From: a virus
Lineage: Duplodnaviria > Heunggongvirae > Uroviricota > Caudoviricetes
Length of the DNA stretch: 39,562 bases
Strand: one strand, 5' to 3'
IMG/VR virus record: IMGVR_UViG_2690316243_000006
The notes under the pieces are model-generated. The model worked only from the letters and a program-made list of their open reading frames with translations, was not told the DNA's origin and ran no database searches. The position numbers and the translations under genes were made by a program. Positions 4,764 to 38,286 of this stretch are shown piece by piece (the stretch's first letter is position 1; each line of letters starts with the position of its first letter).

Positions 4764-4833
4764 CGTCTTTTCTGCCTGTTTCTGAATTAAACAGAGTCAG
4801 AATAGCGACCGCTGAAAAATATGTGTTTTGCGG

Positions 4834-20756: not shown

Positions 20757-20933
20757 TCCGGCAGCATAAGCCGGTGTTTTTCGGGGCCGGTTTTGCGGGA
20801 CTTCAGAAAGTGCTGACAGGGGAAAAATGAGAAAGGCGCTTCACGCAGATTTTAAAGCCCGTTAAATACAGGTTAGAAAATCACGACACGCGCCTGAAGA
20901 GGGTAAGGTAATGCGTTTGTATACCTTAAACCA
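20757..20933. other. G-I intergenic spacer near the genome centre; candidate strong gyrase site
   Basis: 177-bp non-coding gap about 48 percent of the way along the prophage; in Mu the strong gyrase site lies in this spacer. Positional inference only. Confidence 0.3.
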
Positions 20934-21407
20934 TTACGGCGTTTCTGTGGCCTTTTTAAAGCGTTTTCTGATTTCGTCCATGATCTCCTGTTCTGCCACC
21001 TGATCAAAGCCCATATACGGACGTGCGCCAATGGCCGCCGGTCCCGGTGGCATACCAGGCAGGCCACCCCACTGATGAATGGCCGCATAAGGTTCATTTG
21101 ATCCAATCAGCGCCCAGGTATCGCCATAATCCGTGGTCAGGCGGCGGGCCAGATCGCCGTTCAGTGTCAGGATTTTGCCGGGCGTGTATCCCTTACGGGT
21201 ACGCCACTTGCGGTAAGGATCTGACCAGTCATGCCAGCGTTCGCCGTCCGGCTCTTTTTCCTGTTCAAACGCCATTTCTGACGATGACAGAAGACTCTCC
21301 GCCACACTGCGGGCCAGGTCTTTTCCGCCGCCCACAAACTGAAGCCGGGCAAACACCCGCTGGAGACGCGTAACGTCAACAACGACAGCGGCATCAATGG
21401 ATGACAT
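20934..21407 (-). CDS. Virion morphogenesis protein (Mu G-like)
   Basis: 157 aa; synteny between the F-like and I-like genes. Confidence 0.7.
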   Translation of the reverse strand: MSSIDAAVVVDVTRLQRVFARLQFVGGGKDLARSVAESLLSSSEMAFEQEKEPDGERWHDWSDPYRKWRTRKGYTPGKILTLNGDLARRLTTDYGDTWALIGSNEPYAAIHQWGGLPGMPPGPAAIGARPYMGFDQVAEQEIMDEIRKRFKKATETP

Positions 21408-21447: not shown

Positions 21448-21527
21448 GTCAGTGTACGCTTAACTGGTAAAGTCGGTGCCTGCCTCCGGGTGGATCATGT
21501 ATGCGGGTTCGACCCCCGCCACTGACC
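21448..21527 (+). other. tRNA-like structure (perfect acceptor stem and T-arm, no anticodon stem) in the F-G spacer
   Basis: GTCAGTG pairs with CACTGAC (7 bp); T-arm GCGGG TTCGACC CCCGC; U8-A9 and a GG-containing D-loop; no 5-bp anticodon stem can be formed. Confidence 0.35.
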
Positions 21528-21528
21528 G

Positions 21529-22860
21529 TTAATCAATTTGTCCTTCCAGCACCTCAAGCATTCCGCCCCGGATATCCGATTTCAGCTTATCCATATTGAT
21601 AACCCGGTAAGCATTCACAATCACATCCAGTTTGTCGGGCTGACGTTTCAGACTGTACGGTGCATTAACGGCAATCTGCACACTGCCATCCTTATTTTCC
21701 ACGATATACATCAGATTTTTGTGCCGTTTGTCCCACAGCACCGCTTTTGGCTTTGCCAGCATTGCCGGTAAGCGCCCGAAGTCCTCTGGCATCAGGGCGA
21801 TGCCGTCATTCTGATGTTTCACACTGTCTGCATGGAGCACATTTTTACCGCTCATCGCCAGCAGGCGGGCCGGTGGCGTTCCCGTCCGGCTTTCCACTGC
21901 CTGCGCAATGCTTTCAGTCATAAAGCCCAGCGTGCGGATATCGTTACCACCTCGCCGGGTCTGCATGATGTTTTTTGCCCAGATGCGGAACGCCAGCTGC
22001 CGCTCCGGGCTGTTGTTCATCTCCTGAACCACCATTTCCCGTAACGCCGGGCTTTTCACCTCGATCAGTTTGCGGATCAGCGCCTGGTCTGTGCCGAACG
22101 CTGCCGAGCCGGGGTTATATGACCAGCCCACATCCGGTGTCATGGTTCTGGTGCCATCTGAATATGTGGTCACCGGCATTTCTCTGACTTCTCCGGTCTG
22201 TTTATCCACGCCAGCCTCAACATTGCGGGTGGAGAGATGATCCTCACCGGATGAAACGGATAACCCCATTGCATCCAGACGAGCCTGAGACAATGGCCGC
22301 ACACGGCAGCGGCAGTTCCAGCCATTAGGTGGGTAGTGTGTTTTCCAGAACGGATCGTCATAGCGGAATACCAGACCGTTAAGGGCGGAATGCGACGGGC
22401 GGGTACGGCTGTCCATGACCGCCACATACTGCCAGAACGGATGCGTGTCCGTGTTGTTCATCATCTGCGTGTAACGCCCGGCATTGTAAGCCACACGGGT
22501 GTTCACGTTGTAAATCAGCGCCAGACGACGGGGACTGCCCAGTTGCACTTCTTCCGCGTTACCGTCGCTGTCCACCACAATCTGCTTTCCCCACCATCCC
22601 AGCTTTTGCAGGCGTGGCGTCAGCGTGCGGATAAATGCTTTCTGTGAAATTCCCTCATCAATGGCCCGCTGCACTTCGGCCTGTAACGTGGTCACCACAT
22701 CCAGGCGTGCCGCTTTTGCTGCCGTGAATGAGCGGGCATGAACATCCGCGGCTGTTTCGAACCAGTTCCAGCTGATATGCGCCCCTTTGACACGGAAGTA
22801 TGCTACCGCCTCTTTTGAGGGAAGCGTGGCGGCATAACCTAAATCAATCCCCTGTGTCAT
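21529..22860 (-). CDS. Head morphogenesis protein (Mu F-like)
   Basis: 443 aa downstream of the portal gene. Confidence 0.75.
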   Translation of the reverse strand: MTQGIDLGYAATLPSKEAVAYFRVKGAHISWNWFETAADVHARSFTAAKAARLDVVTTLQAEVQRAIDEGISQKAFIRTLTPRLQKLGWWGKQIVVDSDGNAEEVQLGSPRRLALIYNVNTRVAYNAGRYTQMMNNTDTHPFWQYVAVMDSRTRPSHSALNGLVFRYDDPFWKTHYPPNGWNCRCRVRPLSQARLDAMGLSVSSGEDHLSTRNVEAGVDKQTGEVREMPVTTYSDGTRTMTPDVGWSYNPGSAAFGTDQALIRKLIEVKSPALREMVVQEMNNSPERQLAFRIWAKNIMQTRRGGNDIRTLGFMTESIAQAVESRTGTPPARLLAMSGKNVLHADSVKHQNDGIALMPEDFGRLPAMLAKPKAVLWDKRHKNLMYIVENKDGSVQIAVNAPYSLKRQPDKLDVIVNAYRVINMDKLKSDIRGGMLEVLEGQID

Positions 22861-28124: not shown

Positions 28125-28476
28125 TCGTGGCCGCCTTGCTGATTTGTGAAATGAGTTGCAGGGTGCGTTGCTGGTTTGCCAGCACCAGACGGGCTTCGTC
28201 CCGTTCACGCACAAGCACATGATTATTGTCCTCAAGGCGCTGCGTCTTCTGGTGCATTCCCCATACCACGGCAGCCAGCACGCTCATCACCCCCAGCGCC
28301 GCCATACAGCCTCCGGCAATCAGGGCCGGTAAGGGATTGTTCACCGCAGACACAGCACACCCCGCAGCAGCACAACGGCACACAGCAGCGCAATCATGAG
28401 CGGTCGCCAGAAGCGGTTCAGACTTTCGGCAAATCGTAACGACATAACCATTCATCCGCCGAACGGCGGGCCTCAA
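27955..28476 (-). CDS. Inner-membrane spanin (i-spanin) candidate (start uncertain)
   Basis: Hydrophobic segment LPALIAGGCMAALGVMSVLAAVVWGM followed by a charged coiled-coil-like region; immediately downstream of the lysozyme gene. Confidence 0.5.
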   Translation of the reverse strand: MRPAVRRMNGYVVTICRKSEPLLATAHDCAAVCRCAAAGCAVSAVNNPLPALIAGGCMAALGVMSVLAAVVWGMHQKTQRLEDNNHVLVRERDEARLVLANQQRTLQLISQISKAATNEKQQNMQHSEEQQSIVRRSLATVPAAAVPVSDDVADRVRRAVCEIRPCAAGADPR

Positions 28477-28918
28477 GACCGGGGAGTTTTACCCCCTTTG
28501 AATAAATCCAGCGGATATACTGCTTACAGGACGCGGGCATCTGCCCGGCATTGATAAGGCGCAGGAGCGTGGAGTTGCGAAAGTTCGTTTCACCGGCCCA
28601 GAAAATCCAGGAGGCCAGCGCCACCGTCTGACCACGGGTAAGCGGCACCTGAACATGACGATCGATAGCCGCAAAGGCCCATTTCATGTCCTTTTCCAGC
28701 AGCTCCAGACACTCTTCATCAGTTTTTGTCATCCCCGGTTTCACATCCGGGCCGGTATGGCCGTAACAGATGGTGGGGGTGCCGGTGGGATCAATGTACG
28801 TGGTGTTTTCTTTCCCTTCCCAGTAGCCGGTGTAGTGCGTGGCAATGGTGAACGTCCCGGCTCCGGCCAGAACAAGGGCAATCAGCTTTTTACGCAGGGG
28901 TGCGGGGAGTTTTGGCAT
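28418..28918 (-). CDS. Endolysin (lysozyme) with N-terminal signal-anchor-release-like segment
   Basis: N-terminus KKLIALVLAGAGTFTIA followed by TICYGHTGPD, similar in architecture to Mu gp22. Confidence 0.8.
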   Translation of the reverse strand: MPKLPAPLRKKLIALVLAGAGTFTIATHYTGYWEGKENTTYIDPTGTPTICYGHTGPDVKPGMTKTDEECLELLEKDMKWAFAAIDRHVQVPLTRGQTVALASWIFWAGETNFRNSTLLRLINAGQMPASCKQYIRWIYSKGVKLPGLEARRSADEWLCRYDLPKV

Positions 28919-28989
28919 TGTTACGCTGTCTCATGGTGTTCTCTGAGTCAGCGTAACCGTGAGGAAAAGGGGGCAGGATTTGCGGAATA

Positions 28990-29412
28990 TCAGAAAAGCC
29001 GGGGCTGCGTGCGCTCCTGATGCAGGCGACGCTGGTTGCGGATAACGGAGTAAATCTGCGTCTCTGACATCTGGTAGTGGCGGCGCAGGGTTTCAATTTT
29101 TTCGCCCTGGCTCCAGCGGGAAAAAATTTCATTATTGCGCAGTTCGGTGAAAAGGGATTCACCGACCGGGAGATAATAACCACGCCCGCCCATGTACCCG
29201 GCCTGTGCGGCTGCAACCTTACGGGCAAGCATTCCCGCCTGAGCAGGTTCAATCCCCTGACGGTGCAGTTCAGCACTGATCACATCAACCAGGTCCCGCA
29301 GCGTGCCGGGCCAGTTCTTTTTCAGCTCATCATCAGGAATATCATCCAGACGGTCAATCAGCGCGTGCAGCTGTTCGCTGTCACCAAACATGCTCATCTG
29401 TGTTTCAGCCAT
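28990..29412 (-). CDS. Mor/C-family transcription activator (likely the late-gene activator by position upstream of lys)
   Basis: 140 aa; C-terminal HTH ...IETLRRHYQMSETQIYSVIRNQRRL resembles Mor/C. Confidence 0.7.
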   Translation of the reverse strand: MAETQMSMFGDSEQLHALIDRLDDIPDDELKKNWPGTLRDLVDVISAELHRQGIEPAQAGMLARKVAAAQAGYMGGRGYYLPVGESLFTELRNNEIFSRWSQGEKIETLRRHYQMSETQIYSVIRNQRRLHQERTQPRLF

Positions 29413-29443: not shown

Positions 29444-29476
29444 GTTTAAAATAAAAATCCCGCGCTGTGGCGGGAT
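29444..29476 (-). terminator. Intrinsic terminator immediately after gemA
   Basis: Minus-strand hairpin ATCCCGC/GCGGGAT followed by UUUUUAUUUUAAAC. Confidence 0.55.
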
Positions 29477-29482
29477 TTGGGG

Positions 29483-29995
29483 TTAACGGGGGAATGATTT
29501 TTCATACAGCCTGCAAACACGCTCATAACTCATCACTGCACGTTCCGACATATCCAGGGCTGCCAGCATTTTGCGGCGGTGCCAGCGTTTGAGACGCTCC
29601 AGCACATCAGAGGCCAGCGCGGGTTGTTGCTCCAGCCACTGCCAGTTAGCCACACCTTCGCCGTCGTTCTGCGCGGCCGTCTGCGATTTCACCCAGCGGT
29701 TAAGGGCCGTTTCCCCGCCATCAGAGATAAATCCCTGCCGGTGCATCACTTTCCAGATGGCGCGAATTTTGGCGGTCACCGTACCCGGTTTTAAGGCCCG
29801 GTTAACCGGCTTCTGACGCACTTTAAAACCGCGTTTTTTGAAAACATCCAGCACGCGGGATAACTCACCGGGTGACATATCACGGCAACTGGATTTGCCG
29901 GTGGCTGCCAGCAGCGCGGATGTATAGGTATCATGGTCAAGCTGTAGATCGCGTTTTGCGACATGTATTAAGGTAATCAGGGAAGCGCGATTCAT
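29483..29995 (-). CDS. gemA: GemA-like protein (Mu gp16 family)
   Basis: MNRASLITLIHVAKRDLQLDHDTYTSALLAATGKSSCRDMSPGELSRVLDVFKKRGF matches my recollection of the gp16 family N-terminus. Confidence 0.65.
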   Translation of the reverse strand: MNRASLITLIHVAKRDLQLDHDTYTSALLAATGKSSCRDMSPGELSRVLDVFKKRGFKVRQKPVNRALKPGTVTAKIRAIWKVMHRQGFISDGGETALNRWVKSQTAAQNDGEGVANWQWLEQQPALASDVLERLKRWHRRKMLAALDMSERAVMSYERVCRLYEKSFPR

Positions 29996-30011: not shown

Positions 30012-30037
30012 AAAATGGGCGGTGTTACCGCACCGCC
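30012..30037 (-). terminator. Intrinsic terminator or attenuator just upstream of gemA
   Basis: Minus-strand hairpin GGCGGTG/CACCGCC (30018-30037) followed by CAUUUUUUAU, ending about 15 nt before the gemA RBS. Confidence 0.5.
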
Positions 30038-30065: not shown

Positions 30066-30305
30066 ATGTCAGATATAAAAAATGCACTTGATGTTGCCGC
30101 ATTCACAATGGCTGGAAATCTTATGGTAACCCTGTTCGATAAGGGGCTGATTTCCCGTGAGGAGGCAATACATATTATCAATCTCGCTCAAAAAAACTCT
30201 ACCCCGGAAAATGCAGAAGATATCCAGGATGGCTCATATATTAATACCGACTGGCATTTCGACAATCTCCGGGCCTGTATGGGGATTACCGCTGAAAAAG
30301 ATTAA
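30066..30305 (+). CDS. Hypothetical protein (79 aa) on the opposite strand to the early operon
   Basis: AAGGA RBS 8 nt before the ATG; AT-rich island; 3' end overlaps the convergent minus-strand ORF by 20 nt. Confidence 0.4.
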   Translation: MSDIKNALDVAAFTMAGNLMVTLFDKGLISREEAIHIINLAQKNSTPENAEDIQDGSYINTDWHFDNLRACMGITAEKD

Positions 30306-30571
30306 AAATTTTTGCATAATGTTCAGATGTAAGAATTGCTGAACCATCAACACCGAGCCTGCGGCGAACGTATTCCTCGCGGGCTATTTTATTATCCAGA
30401 GATACAGCATCCTTAATCAGGTTAATCTCCCGCTCCATTATCAAAAGGGCTTCTCTGGCTGCAAGATTTTCTTTTATCGCATATTCGATAATGTCCCGCA
30501 TACGTTCAAGCATGCCGATTTTAGCCAGTTCTTCGTCGATAGATTTAGGCGCAAATTTGATTTCTTTTTCC
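30286..30571 (-). CDS. Hypothetical charged helical protein (about 95 aa; start taken at MEKEIK)
   Basis: Start overlaps the stop of the upstream zinc-ribbon ORF; Glu/Lys/Arg-rich. Confidence 0.45.
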
Positions 30572-30574
30572 ATA

Positions 30575-30718
30575 TTATTCATCCTCACAATTTATACATG
30601 CAGTGTCGTCGCCCATATCGCAGTGGTTACATTTTATCTCACCACAATGTGGGCACTCTTTCAGATACTCCGGGTCCTCATTTCCACAGGTGGGACATTC
30701 AACAATTTGCTCATCCAT
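30575..30718 (-). CDS. Small zinc-ribbon protein (47 aa, four CxxC motifs)
   Basis: MDEQIVECPTCGNEDPEYLKECPHCGEIKCNHCDMGDDTACINCEDE; ATG 2 nt after the stop of the upstream gene; not in the supplied ORF track (under 60 aa). Confidence 0.45.
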   Translation of the reverse strand: MDEQIVECPTCGNEDPEYLKECPHCGEIKCNHCDMGDDTACINCEDE

Positions 30719-31043
30719 TATGTATCCCCTGTAATTCCGGCAAGGCCGAAAGATGGCACCAGTGCGTCACCTGTCCGTCCTCATCTTCAAGGCAGGCTCC
30801 GGTTTCTTCATCAATAAAAAAGCCTTCATACCCCATATGGCCGATGCGCAGTTCCTGTTGGTCACCATACTGAACAATCAGCACGACAGCCTCCATATCA
30901 GGCGGAAATGCGTCATCCAGTGAATGCCAGGGATAACCGCGCAAATCCCCGAAATAAACGCCGGTCAGCGTTCCGCCACAGAGCGGCATTCCGGCGGCAC
31001 ACACAAGAGGTTCATCTGATTCAACAAATAAGGTCGTTATCAT
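30711..31043 (-). CDS. Hypothetical strongly acidic protein (110 aa)
   Basis: About 19 Asp/Glu against very few basic residues; early-region position. Confidence 0.5.
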   Translation of the reverse strand: MITTLFVESDEPLVCAAGMPLCGGTLTGVYFGDLRGYPWHSLDDAFPPDMEAVVLIVQYGDQQELRIGHMGYEGFFIDEETGACLEDEDGQVTHWCHLSALPELQGIHNG

Positions 31044-31591
31044 GGCGTTAACTCCCGTAATACAGCGTCCTCGGCAGTCCGGCGACGGTAATAAACTGCG
31101 TGAGCAGAATGTTCAGATATTCCAAACTTTTCGCCAATTTCCCGGAATGACAGACGGCGTGGGTAATCGGAATCACGCAGCGCACGTATAAGACGTACAT
31201 CATCATCAGATATGCGCGTGCCGGGGCGTAACTCTCCGCACTTTGTTAATCCAGCACCAATCATTCCTGCCCGACATCTGACAGAATCTTTATTACGTCC
31301 GAGATATTCTCCCATTTGCTGGCAGGTCATTGTTCTGGCATTTTTTCGAATAAACTTATCTTCATCAGGTGTAAATCTTGGGTGTTTATATTTCAGTAAC
31401 TCCGGGTATGAACTGCGCAATACACCAGTCCGGTTATATACAGCCCAGACAGTTCTTTTTATTCTGGCAGCAATATCCTTAACCGGGGTGGATGAATAAA
31501 GCGCAATCAGCAGCGCATCTTCTTCAGGTGTCCACGGACGGACATGAGCGGGGGCGCGACCTTTTAGTCCCATGGGTTGTAATTTCATCAT
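31040..31591 (-). CDS. Putative DNA-binding protein with Myb/SANT-like N-terminal motifs and a C-terminal HTH
   Basis: RPWTPEEDALLIALY and FTPDEDKFIRKN motifs; C-terminal FREIGEKFGISEHSAHAVYYRRR resembles Mor/C or sigma region-4 HTH. Confidence 0.55.
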   Translation of the reverse strand: MMKLQPMGLKGRAPAHVRPWTPEEDALLIALYSSTPVKDIAARIKRTVWAVYNRTGVLRSSYPELLKYKHPRFTPDEDKFIRKNARTMTCQQMGEYLGRNKDSVRCRAGMIGAGLTKCGELRPGTRISDDDVRLIRALRDSDYPRRLSFREIGEKFGISEHSAHAVYYRRRTAEDAVLRELTP

Positions 31592-31594
31592 GCA

Positions 31595-32110
31595 TCACCC
31601 CCTGACTCGCTTTTCAGCAGCATAAAACTCATCAGACAGTATTTCGGTCATTTTCTGTTTTGCGGGTTTTACGCCGCACTGAAGGTAAATCACATCGTCA
31701 ACGCAGAACCACTTCACAGGGCCAAACAGGATTGCCGAGAAATCAATACCCAGCCAGAACAACAGCGCATCGGTTCTGGCATACGTGACGGGCGAATATT
31801 CACGCCACAGACTGTTCAGTTCATCAGAGGCAACACGCAGGGTTTTAGGGATACGTGATGTGCGCGGTGTGCAGCTCCAGCCATTCGACGCAGTCGGTTT
31901 TCGCCATAAGTCGCGATGAAAAGGATATTTGTCCTCCGTAAAACGCAGTCCCTTAAAGCAAAATCCACTGATACCGGATACAAATACCGACCGGCACGCA
32001 ACATTCAGCACGGCCTCAAGGCGTTTTGCCTCATCCTTAACTTTCTGGCAGTCCTGCTGGTATTTTTGCCACGCAGCCAGCGCGGAAGGGTTTGATGTTT
32101 TAAAGAACAT
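31595..32110 (-). CDS. Hypothetical protein (171 aa)
   Basis: Tightly packed in the early operon; no recognisable motif. Confidence 0.5.
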   Translation of the reverse strand: MFFKTSNPSALAAWQKYQQDCQKVKDEAKRLEAVLNVACRSVFVSGISGFCFKGLRFTEDKYPFHRDLWRKPTASNGWSCTPRTSRIPKTLRVASDELNSLWREYSPVTYARTDALLFWLGIDFSAILFGPVKWFCVDDVIYLQCGVKPAKQKMTEILSDEFYAAEKRVRG

Positions 32111-32643
32111 TACGCCACCTCCGCAGATATCCCTGCCGATGCCGCTGTCCGGTCAATAATCAGGTAACGCAGAACGCGCCCGGTGATGTTCCAGCCGCTT
32201 AAGCCGCAGATAATGACGCCCAGGCGAATGTCGATATACGCCATCACAAACTGGGGCACGCCTTCTTTCATGGCCTGCTCATCAACTTCAGCCACCACAT
32301 AAACGGTTTCGCAGGTCAGTACTCCCTGAGCAAATTCCCACGCCATCGACGGAATATCATGCCCCTCAATCCACGGCAGGGATTTTCTGAAGCTGCACCA
32401 CTGAACATCATCAGCCGCACCTTCCTGGCTGCATTTGCGACGAACCGCCTGCACCGGGCGGGGACGCGGAATATCATAAAAACCGTTACGGTCCGTCAGC
32501 ACCCCGGCATCGACCGCATCACGCAGAAAATAAACCATGGAGGATAGCGGCATATTCATTTTTTCTGCCAGAGAACGACTGGTCAGACGGCCAGAAAAAC
32601 GCAGCCAGCTTTTAACCCCTTCAAGCACTTTTGCATCAATCAT
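32110..32643 (-). CDS. Hypothetical protein (177 aa) with a possible N-terminal winged helix
   Basis: LTSRSLAEKMNMPLSSMVYFLRDAVDAGVL is HTH-like; stop/start overlap with the neighbouring gene. Confidence 0.5.
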   Translation of the reverse strand: MIDAKVLEGVKSWLRFSGRLTSRSLAEKMNMPLSSMVYFLRDAVDAGVLTDRNGFYDIPRPRPVQAVRRKCSQEGAADDVQWCSFRKSLPWIEGHDIPSMAWEFAQGVLTCETVYVVAEVDEQAMKEGVPQFVMAYIDIRLGVIICGLSGWNITGRVLRYLIIDRTAASAGISAEVA

Positions 32644-32646
32644 GAA

Positions 32647-33189
32647 TTATTCCTCCGTCAGCGCCACATATTCAGAATGTTTAATTTCCTGGCATTCTTC
32701 AGGAATACCCCCTTTTATTTCCCTGCCATAAGCGCCTACTTTAAACACCACGCACAGGGCATCACGGGAGAGCGACGGGGTCCACCAGGAGTCCGTGTTA
32801 AACATGGAGGGGATTCTCATTACCCCCAGCTTTTCACAGAGCCAGACAAGGAAATCAGGACGCTTTCTTAACTCACGTTCAGCGGTTTCAATCATTGCGG
32901 CAATCGCCGGACCTTCAGGGCATGACTCATCAGGTCTGGCAATAAAGCACGGTCCGTCCCCGATAAAAGCCACATCATCGCGCTTACGCCAGCCCGCAGG
33001 CAGAGAACCAGAAAAATAAAACTCACTGATTACGTCCATGGCGAACGGCTTTAAGCGCAATCCGGCAGCGCCTGTATTTTTCAGTAATGCCCGAAGAATA
33101 CTGTTGCGTAGCGGTAAAACATCCCGCTGATATTCGGTTAAATATTTATTTGTGTACACTATGTCTAATTTGAAATAAAAATATGCCAT
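32647..33189 (-). CDS. Hypothetical protein (180 aa)
   Basis: ORF downstream of gam; no recognisable motif. Confidence 0.5.
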   Translation of the reverse strand: MAYFYFKLDIVYTNKYLTEYQRDVLPLRNSILRALLKNTGAAGLRLKPFAMDVISEFYFSGSLPAGWRKRDDVAFIGDGPCFIARPDESCPEGPAIAAMIETAERELRKRPDFLVWLCEKLGVMRIPSMFNTDSWWTPSLSRDALCVVFKVGAYGREIKGGIPEECQEIKHSEYVALTEE

Positions 33190-33286: not shown

Positions 33287-33817
33287 TTATTTATTCAGTC
33301 CGGCGTCCTGTTCAAAAGGCTCGACATAAAAACTTTCAGCGCCTTTATTCACCTTTATACCGGCAATGCCCTTCACCGCATCTGGCTCCGCCAGGACAGC
33401 TTGCTTATTCACTTCCTCTTTCGTGCGGATGAAGCGCTCAAGGCCCATACGGCGCAGCATTTCAATCACGCCTTCCACATCACGGCTGACGCTGCATGAT
33501 GGCGTTCCCAGCCGCCATGACACCGTTCCGGTGGTCAGATTGGCTGTTTTGGTTTCGCCGCCGTTCGTCAGCTCATTGCGGTTGGTTTTACACCAGTCAT
33601 GAATCCCCTTAAAAAGCACTTTGATTTCTTTTTTAAGGTTTTCAATCTGCGGCGTATAACGGGCGGTGATTTCTGCCACTTCGTCATTCATCGCCGTTTC
33701 CAGGCGTAGTGCCTCACGCTGCATATCCCCAAAGCGTCGGATATCGCGGCTGACCTCTTCACGGGTCTGCGGTGCTGCCTCGGCTGCGGCCTTTAATTTT
33801 GTAACGCGTTTAGCCAT
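33287..33817 (-). CDS. gam: Host-nuclease inhibitor Gam (Ku-like DNA-end-binding protein)
   Basis: MAKRVTKLKAAAEAAPQTREEVSRDIRRFGDMQREALRLETAMNDEVAEITARY...TANLTTGTVSWR...RFIRTKEEVNKQAVLAEP closely resembles Mu Gam; 176 aa. Confidence 0.85.
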   Translation of the reverse strand: MAKRVTKLKAAAEAAPQTREEVSRDIRRFGDMQREALRLETAMNDEVAEITARYTPQIENLKKEIKVLFKGIHDWCKTNRNELTNGGETKTANLTTGTVSWRLGTPSCSVSRDVEGVIEMLRRMGLERFIRTKEEVNKQAVLAEPDAVKGIAGIKVNKGAESFYVEPFEQDAGLNK

Positions 33818-34945: not shown

Positions 34946-35173
34946 TTAGCTGACTTGTTTCGCACCAACAGAACGGCATATTCCGCTGTAAACTTCTGTC
35001 GCACCTTCGCGATCAAGTCCGGCAGATATCACCATTCGTGTGCGGTCATTAAATTCAAAAAGTAAATCGCCACATGCTTTATTTTCGGCCAGTGAAATCA
35101 CCTTCACGTTATCGAAATTAACCAGGTAAAAGCGTCCGTAAATATCAGGAATATTAAATACCGCCATAATCAC
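34946..35173 (-). CDS. Small protein at the Mu kil position (75 aa); function not established
   Basis: Immediately downstream of the B-like gene, where Mu carries kil; size and position only. Confidence 0.35.
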   Translation of the reverse strand: MIMAVFNIPDIYGRFYLVNFDNVKVISLAENKACGDLLFEFNDRTRMVISAGLDREGATEVYSGICRSVGAKQVS

Positions 35174-36102
35174 ACCTGTGAGAGTAATTCAGGGTTGGTA
35201 TAAACCTCTTTAAAGGCCGCATTAATATGTTTTTCTGTCAGCGCCGCGCCTTCACCGCTGGCGGTGAGCCACGCCTGGTTAAGCGTATGTGTCAGAACAC
35301 GTAATGCTCCCGGCTTTTCAGCGATAGCCTGCATGACGGCCAGCTCGGCCTCACCACTGATACCCCATGCCCTGGCAATGGCCAGCACATCCGCCTTTTT
35401 GGCCTTGCGAAGTTGTTTTGTACGGGCAAGACGGCTGAACAGGCGCGATAAATCATCAAAGGCGCGGCGTCCACCTTTAAACAATCCGCGCGGGTTACCA
35501 ATAAGCACCATCCCGATCCCCGTGGCGTCCTGAATTGCCCGGAGTTGCTCCAGACCGTCAATACCAAGATGATCCGCCTCATCCACAATCACCAGTCCAC
35601 GCGTTCCCGTCAGGCGACGGCGGATGGCGCGGGATAATGCCCCTTTGTTCGCGCGGGTGTAATCAATCCCCAGCGCATCGGCCAGCTCCAGCAGACACTC
35701 CGTGACGCTGGAGTGCGCGGGTGACAGGGTGATCATCCAGGTGTTTGGTTGCTCCTGGCAGTAATTACGGGCAGTGGCCGTTTTACCCACACCCGGTACG
35801 CCCACAATAACGTTAATACAGCCCATCAGGCGAACCGCCTGAAACAGTGCGCGCAGCTCCTGGACTGTCTGAGTTTCCACAAACTGCGGCGGTTCCGGCA
35901 GTGCGCTTTGTTTATTCCAGTTCTCATACCAGGAGCGCAGGGAAGCAGCCACAGCGGCGTTATCGCCTTTATATTTCCCCTTGCGGAAAGCCGATAATGT
36001 GCCGTCGGAAATTCCCGCCTCTCTGGCGATGGCATACTGCGTCAGCACGCCGCCATCAATAAGTTCATCAATGGTCTTGATTACATCGTTTATATCGGTC
36101 AT
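35170..36102 (-). CDS. B: MuB-like transposition target-DNA activator (AAA+ ATPase)
   Basis: 310 aa; Walker A GVPGVGKT and Walker B LVIVDEAD; directly downstream of the transposase gene. Confidence 0.85.
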   Translation of the reverse strand: MTDINDVIKTIDELIDGGVLTQYAIAREAGISDGTLSAFRKGKYKGDNAAVAASLRSWYENWNKQSALPEPPQFVETQTVQELRALFQAVRLMGCINVIVGVPGVGKTATARNYCQEQPNTWMITLSPAHSSVTECLLELADALGIDYTRANKGALSRAIRRRLTGTRGLVIVDEADHLGIDGLEQLRAIQDATGIGMVLIGNPRGLFKGGRRAFDDLSRLFSRLARTKQLRKAKKADVLAIARAWGISGEAELAVMQAIAEKPGALRVLTHTLNQAWLTASGEGAALTEKHINAAFKEVYTNPELLSQV

Positions 36103-36177: not shown

Positions 36178-38286
36178 TCAGGCCAGAGGGTCATTTTCTT
36201 TTAATTTCGCTTCGAGCAACTGCAATCCCCGCTGGAAATTACGCTCGTATTCTTCATCAGGCTCATCATCAACGGCAGGTTGCTGAACGGTCACCGTATT
36301 ACCCACAGGGCGGTATATGTTTTCCAGCCAGGGCTCCTGCGGCTTGTGCTCCAGCACGTTGACAACCTCATCCTCGGCATCACGGATTTTTTCCTCTGCG
36401 CGTTTACGCATACCTTTAAGGCGTTGCTGCTGTTTGTAGTATTCCGCGCTGACCGGGAAGGCTTCGCGTTTATTGCCGTCCCATACCGCCTCGCAAATCA
36501 CGCTGCCATCCGGGCGACGTACGGTAATTCGTTCGGCATCATGAATGTCATAGCTGATAAGCACCTTGCGGCCATGCTCATCACTCAGCTCGGGCGCGTA
36601 GTAAATATTATTCAGCCAGCGTATTTCACAGCGTCTTACAGGGCGTTCCACCATTGGCCGGAACATATCCCGCAGCTCAACATCGGACAGCCATTCAATT
36701 TCCGTGTCCTCTTCTGCCAGGCGTTTTTTTCTGAACTCCGCCGGGCTGTAATGCTTCCCGTTCGGCTTCATGGGTAATTCATCGTGCGGCCGGTTGTTGT
36801 ACCACTCAACGCCATCACGAATGGCATCAATCAGTTCAGACCAGGACGGTAAATCACGCATCGCTGACTGTTGCCGGGCGTTCAGCCGTTTGCCCTGTTG
36901 CAGGGCGGTAAATGCCGAGCGTAAATCGCGGTTGGTTTTGCGTAACGTCTCGCGATCTGCACCTTTCCCGAAATAGGTGCGGTATTTACGGGCTATACGC
37001 ATCGGTAACGTGCGGTTAAGCCGTTCGATAATGCCCCGTCCCTGCGGGTTACCGGCAATCCCGGTTGGGTGATTAATCCCCAGTCGCGGCAGGATCCCCA
37101 CAACTTCCTTATCCAGGATGTCGGCGGTTTCCCCGGAACCGTTATCCGAGTAATACAGAAACGGTTTGCCGTGATTACGAATACCGTACTGTATGGCACC
37201 GGCTACGGCGAAAACATTTTCAGCCAGGTCAAGGCTCCAGCCCACCACAAAGCGCGTGCCACCGTCGATAACAAAGGTCACTTCCGGTGCAAATGGCCGC
37301 CCGTGAACCGGGTGCCTGCATTTCAGCTTCATGCCGTGACCGTCACCAATCCAGACATAATTCACCGGCATTCTGGACCAGTCGCGGCGCGTGAATCCCT
37401 CAAGCTGGCGGTATTCACTGCCGGTCACCCGGCCTTTTTGTTTCACCACTTCCGGCAGTTTCTTCATTGCGCGGCGGATGGTGTCGTAAGACGGCATGAT
37501 ATCGAGCATATAAGGCTCATCAGCGTGCCGGTGCTGCCATTCAGCGACAAAATCCTCGTAAGCCTCGGTCATTGGTCGGCCGTTTGACTGGCGATACTGC
37601 GCCAGAAATTCGGGCAGCCAGTTAATATCTTCGGCTTTTATTTCCTGGCGCTTACCAGGTGCCAGCAAAAGCAGGCGTTCAGCGGCGTTCTGCGCCTTGT
37701 TAAAGGCTGCAATCCAGCGTTTCAGCGTGATTTCACTCAACGCACGGCTGTTTCCCTTTTTGGCGTTCGCCGTCTCAACCATTGCCACAATGCGCTCGTC
37801 CAGTTGCGAACGTGCCAGGTTGTCAACGATAAACCGGATAGCCTTCGCACAGCTGAAACCAGGTTGTTGCGCGACTTTCAGAACTTCGCTGACGATCGCG
37901 ATTCGTGCATCAGCCACCTGGCGCTGGTTTTCAGTCAGGGCATTGAGGCGTTCGAGCATCAGTTGTGGTGATCCGCGATATGCCTCCACCGCATCAACCA
38001 CGGCAGGTGAGCGCCTGGCCTTTGTCACTACCGGAGCCGGTGATTCATCGGCTTTTTGCGTCATCAGTTGCAGGGCATAGCGTTCGCGTACTGCCTGCTG
38101 AACAGTTAAAGGCAAAGCCCCTATTTCACACTCTAAAACTTTCCCTTTTACCCCTGGTTTTAGCCGCGTTTTCCACGCTTCCCTCTTTGCTTTTTTGTGC
38201 AGACCTGCCAAAGAACTAGGTAGGTCACTGAATGAAATCAATTCAGTCATTGCAACCCACATATTTCCTCCGCGCACGTCGTTCAT
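36178..38286 (-). CDS. A: MuA-like DDE transposase (start probably ATG at about 38250)
   Basis: 702 aa; N-terminal LPSSLAGLHKKAKREAW domain shared with the c-like repressor; follows ner. Confidence 0.85.
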   Translation of the reverse strand: MNDVRGGNMWVAMTELISFSDLPSSLAGLHKKAKREAWKTRLKPGVKGKVLECEIGALPLTVQQAVRERYALQLMTQKADESPAPVVTKARRSPAVVDAVEAYRGSPQLMLERLNALTENQRQVADARIAIVSEVLKVAQQPGFSCAKAIRFIVDNLARSQLDERIVAMVETANAKKGNSRALSEITLKRWIAAFNKAQNAAERLLLLAPGKRQEIKAEDINWLPEFLAQYRQSNGRPMTEAYEDFVAEWQHRHADEPYMLDIMPSYDTIRRAMKKLPEVVKQKGRVTGSEYRQLEGFTRRDWSRMPVNYVWIGDGHGMKLKCRHPVHGRPFAPEVTFVIDGGTRFVVGWSLDLAENVFAVAGAIQYGIRNHGKPFLYYSDNGSGETADILDKEVVGILPRLGINHPTGIAGNPQGRGIIERLNRTLPMRIARKYRTYFGKGADRETLRKTNRDLRSAFTALQQGKRLNARQQSAMRDLPSWSELIDAIRDGVEWYNNRPHDELPMKPNGKHYSPAEFRKKRLAEEDTEIEWLSDVELRDMFRPMVERPVRRCEIRWLNNIYYAPELSDEHGRKVLISYDIHDAERITVRRPDGSVICEAVWDGNKREAFPVSAEYYKQQQRLKGMRKRAEEKIRDAEDEVVNVLEHKPQEPWLENIYRPVGNTVTVQQPAVDDEPDEEYERNFQRGLQLLEAKLKENDPLA

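Follow-up and report, generated by a model that had tools for sequence, protein, structure and literature searches.

A D5-like protein with three Myb-like repeats in the early region of a Mu-like prophage of E. coli, and its relation to Mor

Phage Mu carries both Mor and C, and a Mu-like prophage with a single gene of the Mor/C family raises the question of whether another early protein does the work of Mor. The window analyzed here, the whole stretch of 39,562 nucleotides, is such a prophage, from E. coli, with its genes on the minus strand; the records closest to it are Mu-like prophages of E. coli chromosomes together with copies that have inserted into Stx-converting phages. One Mor/C-family locus was found in the window, in agreement with the initial annotation, which had gone on to single out a 183-aa protein of the early operon, with Myb/SANT-like motifs and a C-terminal segment thought to resemble the HTH of Mor/C or of sigma region 4, as a possible functional counterpart of Mor in an unusual form. 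We find that the idea of a Mor substitute is unsupported and that the protein is probably not a disguised Mor activator.

The gene is a member of a tightly coupled operon, because a ribosome-binding site precedes its ATG, the stop codon of the upstream gp12-like gene (31595-31597) is only 3 nt away, and its own stop codon overlaps, in an ATGA, the start codon of the 110-aa gene that comes next downstream; the G-rich run that would serve as Shine-Dalgarno sequence overlaps the end of the gp12-like gene. Coupled in this way to its neighbors within a Mu-type early region (Table 1), the gene does have the early-operon position first ascribed to it, and the terminators described downstream are seen as two hairpins. 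Small early ORFs, one of them Kil-like, lie between B and Gam, and a convergent plus-strand ORF lies between the gp14-like ORF and GemA. Part of this region is variable: the 180-aa ORF between Gam and the gp11-like gene is missing from some close relatives (e.g. L001 and L005), while others have a version of about 24% identity in its place. The 183-aa ORF is a real gene under purifying selection, being intact in 64 viral contigs and at 273/273 places spread over 232 E. coli genomes; dN/dS between its two main alleles is about 0.25. Since the block from gemA to the Mor/C gene was found in 231 genomes, virtually no copy of the lineage is without the gene. Copies are carried by O157:H7 and other Shiga-toxin-producing strains and by Stx-converting phages.

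Table 1. Features of the window discussed in the text (positions in the 39,562-nucleotide window)
Feature	Position	Strand	Remark
Transposase A	36178..38286	minus	
B	35170..36102	minus	
Gam	33287..33817	minus	
Variable 180-aa ORF	32647-33189	minus	PHROG 2260; between Gam and gp11-like gene
gp11-like gene	32110..32643	minus	
gp12-like gene	31595..32110	minus	
Shine-Dalgarno-like run GGGGG	31598-31602	minus	G-rich; 6-10 nt 5' of the ATG; read from sequence
183-aa ORF	31040..31591	minus	ATG start; basic (pI 9.96) D5-like protein, three Myb-like/HTH repeats
N-terminal peptide, residues 1-17	31541..31591	minus	..LxPMGxxGxxPAHVR; kept even in P2-like-phage homologues at 37% identity
Repeat 1, residues 18-60	31412..31540	minus	WTPEED..; helices 22-32, 37-44, 48-59
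Repeat 2, residues 71-112	31256..31381	minus	FTPDED..; helices 75-83, 90-97, 101-110
Repeat 3, residues 125-171	31079..31219	minus	ISDDDV..FREIGEKF..; helices 129-140, 149-156, 160-169; segment earlier called Mor-like
Conserved C-terminal helix, residues 172-183	31043..31078	minus	TAEDAVLRELTP; terminal helix 173-181 in the AlphaFold2 model
ATGA overlap	31040..31043	minus	stop of the 183-aa gene/start of the 110-aa gene; translational coupling
47-aa ORF	30575-30718	minus	four CxxC pairs (zinc-ribbon-like); PHROG 5584 (unknown function); between 110-aa and gp14-like ORFs
gp14-like ORF	30286..30588	minus	
Terminator-like hairpin	30037..30018		downstream of the 183-aa gene in the direction of transcription
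GemA	29483..29995	minus	
Terminator-like hairpin	29478..29455	minus	AAATCCCGC-CACAGC-GCGGGATTT and T-run; between gemA and Mor/C gene; kept in all relatives
Mor/C-family gene	28990..29412	minus	Pfam Mor 106.9 bits
Late-promoter-like site	28950-28985	minus	upstream of lysozyme gene
Lysozyme	28418..28918	minus	
tRNA-like element	21448-21527	plus	antisense to late genes, in the gap between 21529..22860 and 20934..21407
Late-promoter-like site	20763-20798	minus	upstream of 19632..20756 gene
Late-promoter-like site	4799-4833	minus	upstream of 2709..4763 gene

The two W/F-TPEED motifs reported initially (RPWTPEEDALLIALY, residues 18-32, and FTPDEDKFIRKN, residues 73-84) are present, and the segments to which they belong are copies of one repeat, since repeats 1 and 2 are homologous (hhalign 97.7%, E 2.5e-12). 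The segment that had been likened to Mor/C or to sigma region 4 (FREIGEKFGISEHSAHAVYYRRR, residues 149-171) does belong to a C-terminal HTH, but this HTH is a third, more diverged copy of the repeat, related to repeat 2 (hhalign 71.5%, E 3.6e-5), and not a Mor domain. An AlphaFold2 model has three helical triplets followed by a C-terminal helix, with a mean pLDDT of 80 and a low pTM (0.43), as expected for modules on flexible linkers. Sequence and model together show that the protein consists of three tandem three-helix HTH repeats of about 50 residues.

The Myb/SANT-like character of the repeats is supported, and the motifs are more than a chance resemblance. In a search of PDB sequences with the family profile, c-Myb R2R3 was matched across both repeats 1 and 2 (E 2.5e-4), as was a tandem-HTH protein (2lvs, E 4.9e-4), and the nearest folds are the GcrA DNA-binding domain, which is the nearest bacterial one, and SANT and Myb domains. 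The protein itself scores 20.7 bits with Pfam Myb (PF00249/PF13921), against a cut-off of 24.4, and has no Pfam match to GcrA, whereas the orthologue P0034 (32.4 bits) and the multi-repeat relative P0023 (140 bits) exceed the Myb threshold. The identical protein WP_000977058.1 is named 'SANT/Myb-like DNA-binding domain-containing protein' by PGAP, so that this annotation is already in the database and the protein adds to a known family. In the family alignment the three regularly spaced tryptophans per repeat are not kept: conservation is confined to the first aromatic position (W20, F73), the others being aliphatic or variable.

Repeat 3 favors bacterial HTH models (HTH_10, 18.7 bits; HTH_AsnC-type, 19.1 bits; Sigma70_r4, 12.1 bits), and in orthologues it is above threshold for generic HTH models (HTH_38, Sigma70_r4 and HTH_23). 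Two family assignments that might be drawn from such matches were rejected. More distant homologues go under 'AsnC family protein' or 'DNA-binding protein' at NCBI, but the HTH_AsnC-type score is below its cut-off of 27 bits, there is no AsnC_trans_reg domain and the model is without an alpha/beta (RAM) domain; the 'AsnC family' name is a mis-transfer from a short HTH match. Membership of the sigma-70 family was discarded as well, the protein having neither region 2 nor region 3 and scoring 12 bits with TIGR02937 against a cut-off of 42.9; in the orthologue P0034, Sigma70_r4 reaches 30.3 bits, in repeat 3 only. Of the HMM searches proposed with the initial annotation, that for Mor gave nothing, and those for Sigma70_r4 and Myb gave 12.1 and 20.7 bits, respectively.

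That the protein binds DNA, as originally suggested, is very probable from its pI, its predicted GcrA-DBD/SANT/Myb folds and its homology to D5 of phage T5. Each of the three repeats carries a net positive charge. Conservation is highest in helix 2 of repeat 3 and in the two terminal peptides, while the presumed recognition helices rank among the regions where it is lowest (mean conservation 0.52 for helix 3 of repeat 3, versus 0.98 for its helix 2). No binding site of the protein was found. The repeats might instead be SANT-like protein-interaction modules that do not bind DNA, the protein serving for instance as an adaptor for RNA polymerase or for some replication protein; we regard this as most improbable, because all three repeats are basic, unlike acidic SANT modules, the closest bacterial fold is a DNA-binding domain and T5 D5 is annotated as DNA-binding in GenBank.

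The family to which the protein belongs is unrelated to Mor/C. PHROG 323 ('transcriptional regulator, D5-like') was matched at 2e-52, residues 2-182 aligning with profile positions 80-256, and the same family takes in T5 D5 (1.2e-71), Mu gp9 (5.2e-29) and a P2-like homologue (2.8e-33); clear homology of this kind had been named at the outset as an observation that would refute a Mor counterpart. T5 D5 is collinear with all three repeats (hhalign 96.7%, E 4.2e-10, 151 columns; residues 17-171 of the 183-aa protein versus 71-232 of D5). Mu gp9 aligns with residues 65-168, which comprise repeat 2, the linker and repeat 3 (hhalign 97.6%, E 3e-12, 28% identity). Mu and the window prophage each have one D5-like protein, in a different operon slot, because PHROG 323 takes in no other early ORF of the window and a BLAST comparison of Mu gp9 with the window gives no match. 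Judged by sequence, the 183-aa protein corresponds to Mu gp9 and not to Mor.

An exhaustive profile search gave 9889 relatives, among them orthologues of about 180 aa and long proteins in which the repeat occurs 4-9 times and of which some are helicase fusions, and BFVD holds many uncharacterized phage proteins of the same architecture. A search of genome contigs with the family alignment yielded no relative. A search of the literature for the 183-aa protein, its accession or Myb-like proteins of Mu-like prophages returned nothing.

Direct comparison with Mor/C argues in the same direction. Pfam Mor (PF08765) has no match at E<=1 in the 183-aa protein and none in its orthologues or in repeat 3 alone, a profile-profile comparison with the Mor/C alignment gave a probability of 0.6% (hhalign), and BLAST against Mu Mor found only a 39-residue patch (E 0.25). 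Mor/C proteins are characterized by an N-terminal dimerization domain and a beta-strand linker, GG..Y(I/L)P (PMC2582627; bioRxiv 10.1101/2025.05.02.651988). The linker motif is invariant in the Mor/C alignment, and the 183-aa protein, for which the model gives helices only and places HTH repeats at the N-terminus, has neither that motif nor a dimerization domain or beta-linker. It resembles Mor/C proteins in being a small basic phage protein that ends in an HTH and then a basic tail, and differs from them in these two hallmarks. The gene is also not, as had been supposed, where Mu has mor. In the Mu order mor follows gemA, and here that slot is occupied by the Mor/C-family gene, while the 183-aa gene lies between the gp12-like and gp14-like genes, where Mu has gp13.

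The presence of one Mor/C gene only, which had been taken to imply a Mor counterpart elsewhere, is weak ground for such a conclusion. A single Mor/C gene is the rule among the 48 phage records with a Mor/C match: 34 have one, without a homologue of the 183-aa protein in any of them, and two Mor/C places were found only in the other 14, which form the Mu/D108/SfMu/Yersinia group. Mu, moreover, carries Mor, C and the D5-like gp9 together. A weak match to Mu Mor at 34952-35065 (E 0.009), in a 75-aa ORF of PHROG 3375, was dismissed as chance.

The idea can nevertheless be formulated around the Mor/C gene itself, in which the 183-aa protein would be an early activator or a read-through factor that turns this gene on. 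The Mor/C protein shares more with Mu C (40% identity) than with Mor (28%), the 183-aa gene is found in virtually all copies of the lineage, and the Mor/C gene is separated from gemA by a strongly conserved hairpin. Mor/C activators bind a 16-bp dyad centered at -43.5 in promoters devoid of a -35 element. In the window allele, the inner dyad of this hairpin, a perfect CCCGC-N6-GCGGG, lies 31.5 nt upstream of a TGTAAT hexamer, and the resulting -43.5 dyad geometry is the one described for Mor and C sites (PMC4390567, PMC2582627). Three late-promoter-like sites of the window share the consensus TTTYTGAWNTYCCGCAAA-N22/23-TAYKCT, and no site of this late type was found upstream of the Mor/C gene, so that simple autoactivation of the gene from such a site is not evident; the requirement for late transcription recorded in GenBank for the distant relative T5 D5 would also fit an activator. 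Against all this, there is no homology to Mor/C, Mu has gp9 as well as Mor, 0/34 single-copy phage records have a homologue, and the family occurs in P2-like prophages that have no Mor/C match in the flanks. In the other common leader allele AACGCG stands in place of the TGTAAT hexamer, and the Pm-like geometry is thus not conserved. The 72%-identity allele of the 183-aa protein occurs, moreover, with both leader types and with an identical hairpin, although the recognition helix of repeat 3 differs at many positions. On balance, we consider it very unlikely that the protein is a Mor substitute of this kind. In its most specific form, namely that the D5-like protein took over Mor's job here by acting at the conserved hairpin/dyad, either activating an embedded promoter or promoting read-through, the idea is highly improbable; were it true, a Mu-type early-middle-late cascade would be driven by a protein that does not belong to Mor/C. 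The Mor/C gene may be expressed by read-through or from a promoter of its own, both of which are possible.

Several observations on these elements stand apart from that argument. In four relatives (L028, L029, L044 and L045), an additional 0.6-0.8 kb separates gemA from the Mor/C gene, with a copy of the hairpin on either side of this insert; in another (L023), it is the hairpin loop that holds an inserted element, of about 1.4 kb. A match of the hairpin to the Mu Mor site was rejected, that site being AGTAA-AGCCGG-TTAAT and merely overlapping the Mu terminator. Likewise, a motif common to the hairpin and the lys promoter region, AAATCCYGCC, was set aside as not significantly enriched, with 13 matches versus 6.9 expected and 4/100 shuffles reaching 13. 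The late-type pattern CCGCAAA-N21-24-TANNCT occurs exactly 3 times in place of 0.03 expected, a statistic that is circular because the pattern was derived from these sites. The Mor/C protein starts with ..QMSMF.. and ends with ..QPRLF, resembling the N- and C-terminal beta-clamp-binding motifs reported for Mu C (PMC12867686). Among the late genes, the tRNA-like element has an oversized anticodon region and scores 31.0 bits with Rfam tRNA in a local scan (gathering score 29); ARAGORN and a whole-window Rfam scan gave nothing for it, and PGAP has annotated a 'tRNA-OTHER' at the homologous place.

The distribution and the variation of the gene bear on what else it might do. Mu-like loci make up 42 of the 64 viral loci, and each of them has a single Mor/C gene provided that the flank extends to it. 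Another 21 are P2-like prophages, in which the homologue (36-47% identity, with the same conserved termini) precedes replication gene A by about 1 kb and the flanking DNA examined yielded no Mor/C gene. The neighboring genes are not common to the two contexts. At one P2-like locus (L047 6592-9549), a gene for a Dam-like adenine methyltransferase and a small ORF precede the homologue, a cytosine-5 methyltransferase gene follows it just before replication gene A, and all of these are translationally coupled to it.

Within the E. coli lineage the gene has two deep alleles (noted at window 31079-31460), of about 72% amino acid identity, in backbones whose flanking genes are 90-100% identical. Between these alleles dS is about 0.6 overall but reaches 1.8 in repeat 3 and is only 0.11 in repeat 1, which suggests that the part encoding repeats 2 and 3 has been replaced by recombination. 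In 19000-39562, which includes the hairpin and the leader of the Mor/C gene, no DNA other than the gene itself was found to co-vary with the allele. This allele pattern speaks mildly against a single fixed cis-site in the regulatory regions of the phage, and is compatible with a shifting specificity or a conflict-driven function.

It could also be that the protein is not a transcription regulator but a DNA-targeting accessory factor, acting in replication or transposition, on the host nucleoid, or in conflict with host defenses or competing phages. The gene belongs to the accessory, semi-essential portion of the Mu-type early region and, in P2-like phages, to the non-essential stretch before gene A, with coupling to two DNA methyltransferase genes in one case; in other phages, the repeat is fused to helicases, HNH endonucleases and methylases. 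Two such diverged alleles in a nearly uniform backbone are typical of specificity or arms-race genes, and T5 D5 mutants are defective in DNA replication as well. On the other hand, a PADLOC search was negative, the protein has no enzymatic domain, no partner was identified, and the Mu-like and P2-like contexts do not share their neighboring genes. We consider this account unlikely on the whole, but one to be taken seriously.

The reading that we favor, with moderate confidence, is that the 183-aa protein is a D5-like accessory early factor, the counterpart of Mu gp9, which binds DNA through its three HTH modules and modulates phage transcription or replication. Given the gene arrangement, and with early timing assumed by analogy with Mu, it would be made from the early (transposase) operon by translational coupling. 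It would then most likely bind duplex DNA, as fold, charge and the T5 D5 precedent indicate, with the third helix of each repeat in a major groove, as in Myb R2R3 and the GcrA DBD. Tentatively, and by analogy with T5 D5, it may exert an accessory influence on phage transcription or replication in the transition from early to late; it would probably not do so as an RNA-polymerase-recruiting activator of a specific promoter, as Mor/C proteins do. By the same analogy a regulatory role in the early-to-late switch is possible, and there is room for a specific regulatory link, because the gene is strictly present where the only Mor/C gene lies behind a terminator-like hairpin. The present result alone does not change the current picture of Mu-type regulation. 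What it does is to correct two misleading labels, 'AsnC family protein' in the database and 'Mor-like' in the initial annotation.

Known systems with related folds differ from the 183-aa protein to various degrees. In c-Myb R2R3 (PF00249) and SANT domains the repeats have the regular tryptophan triad that is lost here, and GcrA of Caulobacter (PDB 5yiu) consists of one such DNA-binding domain and a C-terminal sigma-70-interacting domain, which is absent from our protein. The archaeal CRISPR-repeat-binding protein Cbp2 (PDB 2lvs) has two tandem HTH modules and a linker, with the profile match extending over residues 28-115 and a Foldseek probability of 0.98; it is archaeal, has two repeats and serves an unrelated biology, so that the similarity is one of architecture only.

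T5 D5 (T5.118, YP_006946.1) is closer, being like the 183-aa protein a PHROG 323 member and the product of an early gene, with three collinear HTH repeats. The GenBank note on T5.118 describes D5 as DNA-binding, needed for both DNA replication and late transcription, and with a part in the shut-off of expression. It is reported to bind duplex DNA, with effects on replication, early shut-off and late transcription; the primary reference is McCorquodale 1979, cited in PMC12630848. D5 differs from the 183-aa protein in that it is longer (255 aa, about 70 aa of which form an additional N-terminal region), is only 25% identical and is essential in its phage, which is virulent; its alignment does not show the N- and C-terminal peptides conserved in the 183-aa family. 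The relation is remote and rests on widespread HTH repeats, and a function cannot be transferred from T5 D5 with confidence. Mu gp9 (Mup09, formerly E8), of 99 aa, has two repeats only, without repeat 1 and both terminal peptides, and its slot is just upstream of gam and not after gp12; like the 183-aa protein, it is a PHROG 323 member from the early region of a transposable phage. PHROG 323 in this way links T5 D5, Mu gp9/E8 and early genes of P2-like prophages, and genetics on the present lineage could assign a function to Mu gp9 and to D5-like proteins generally.
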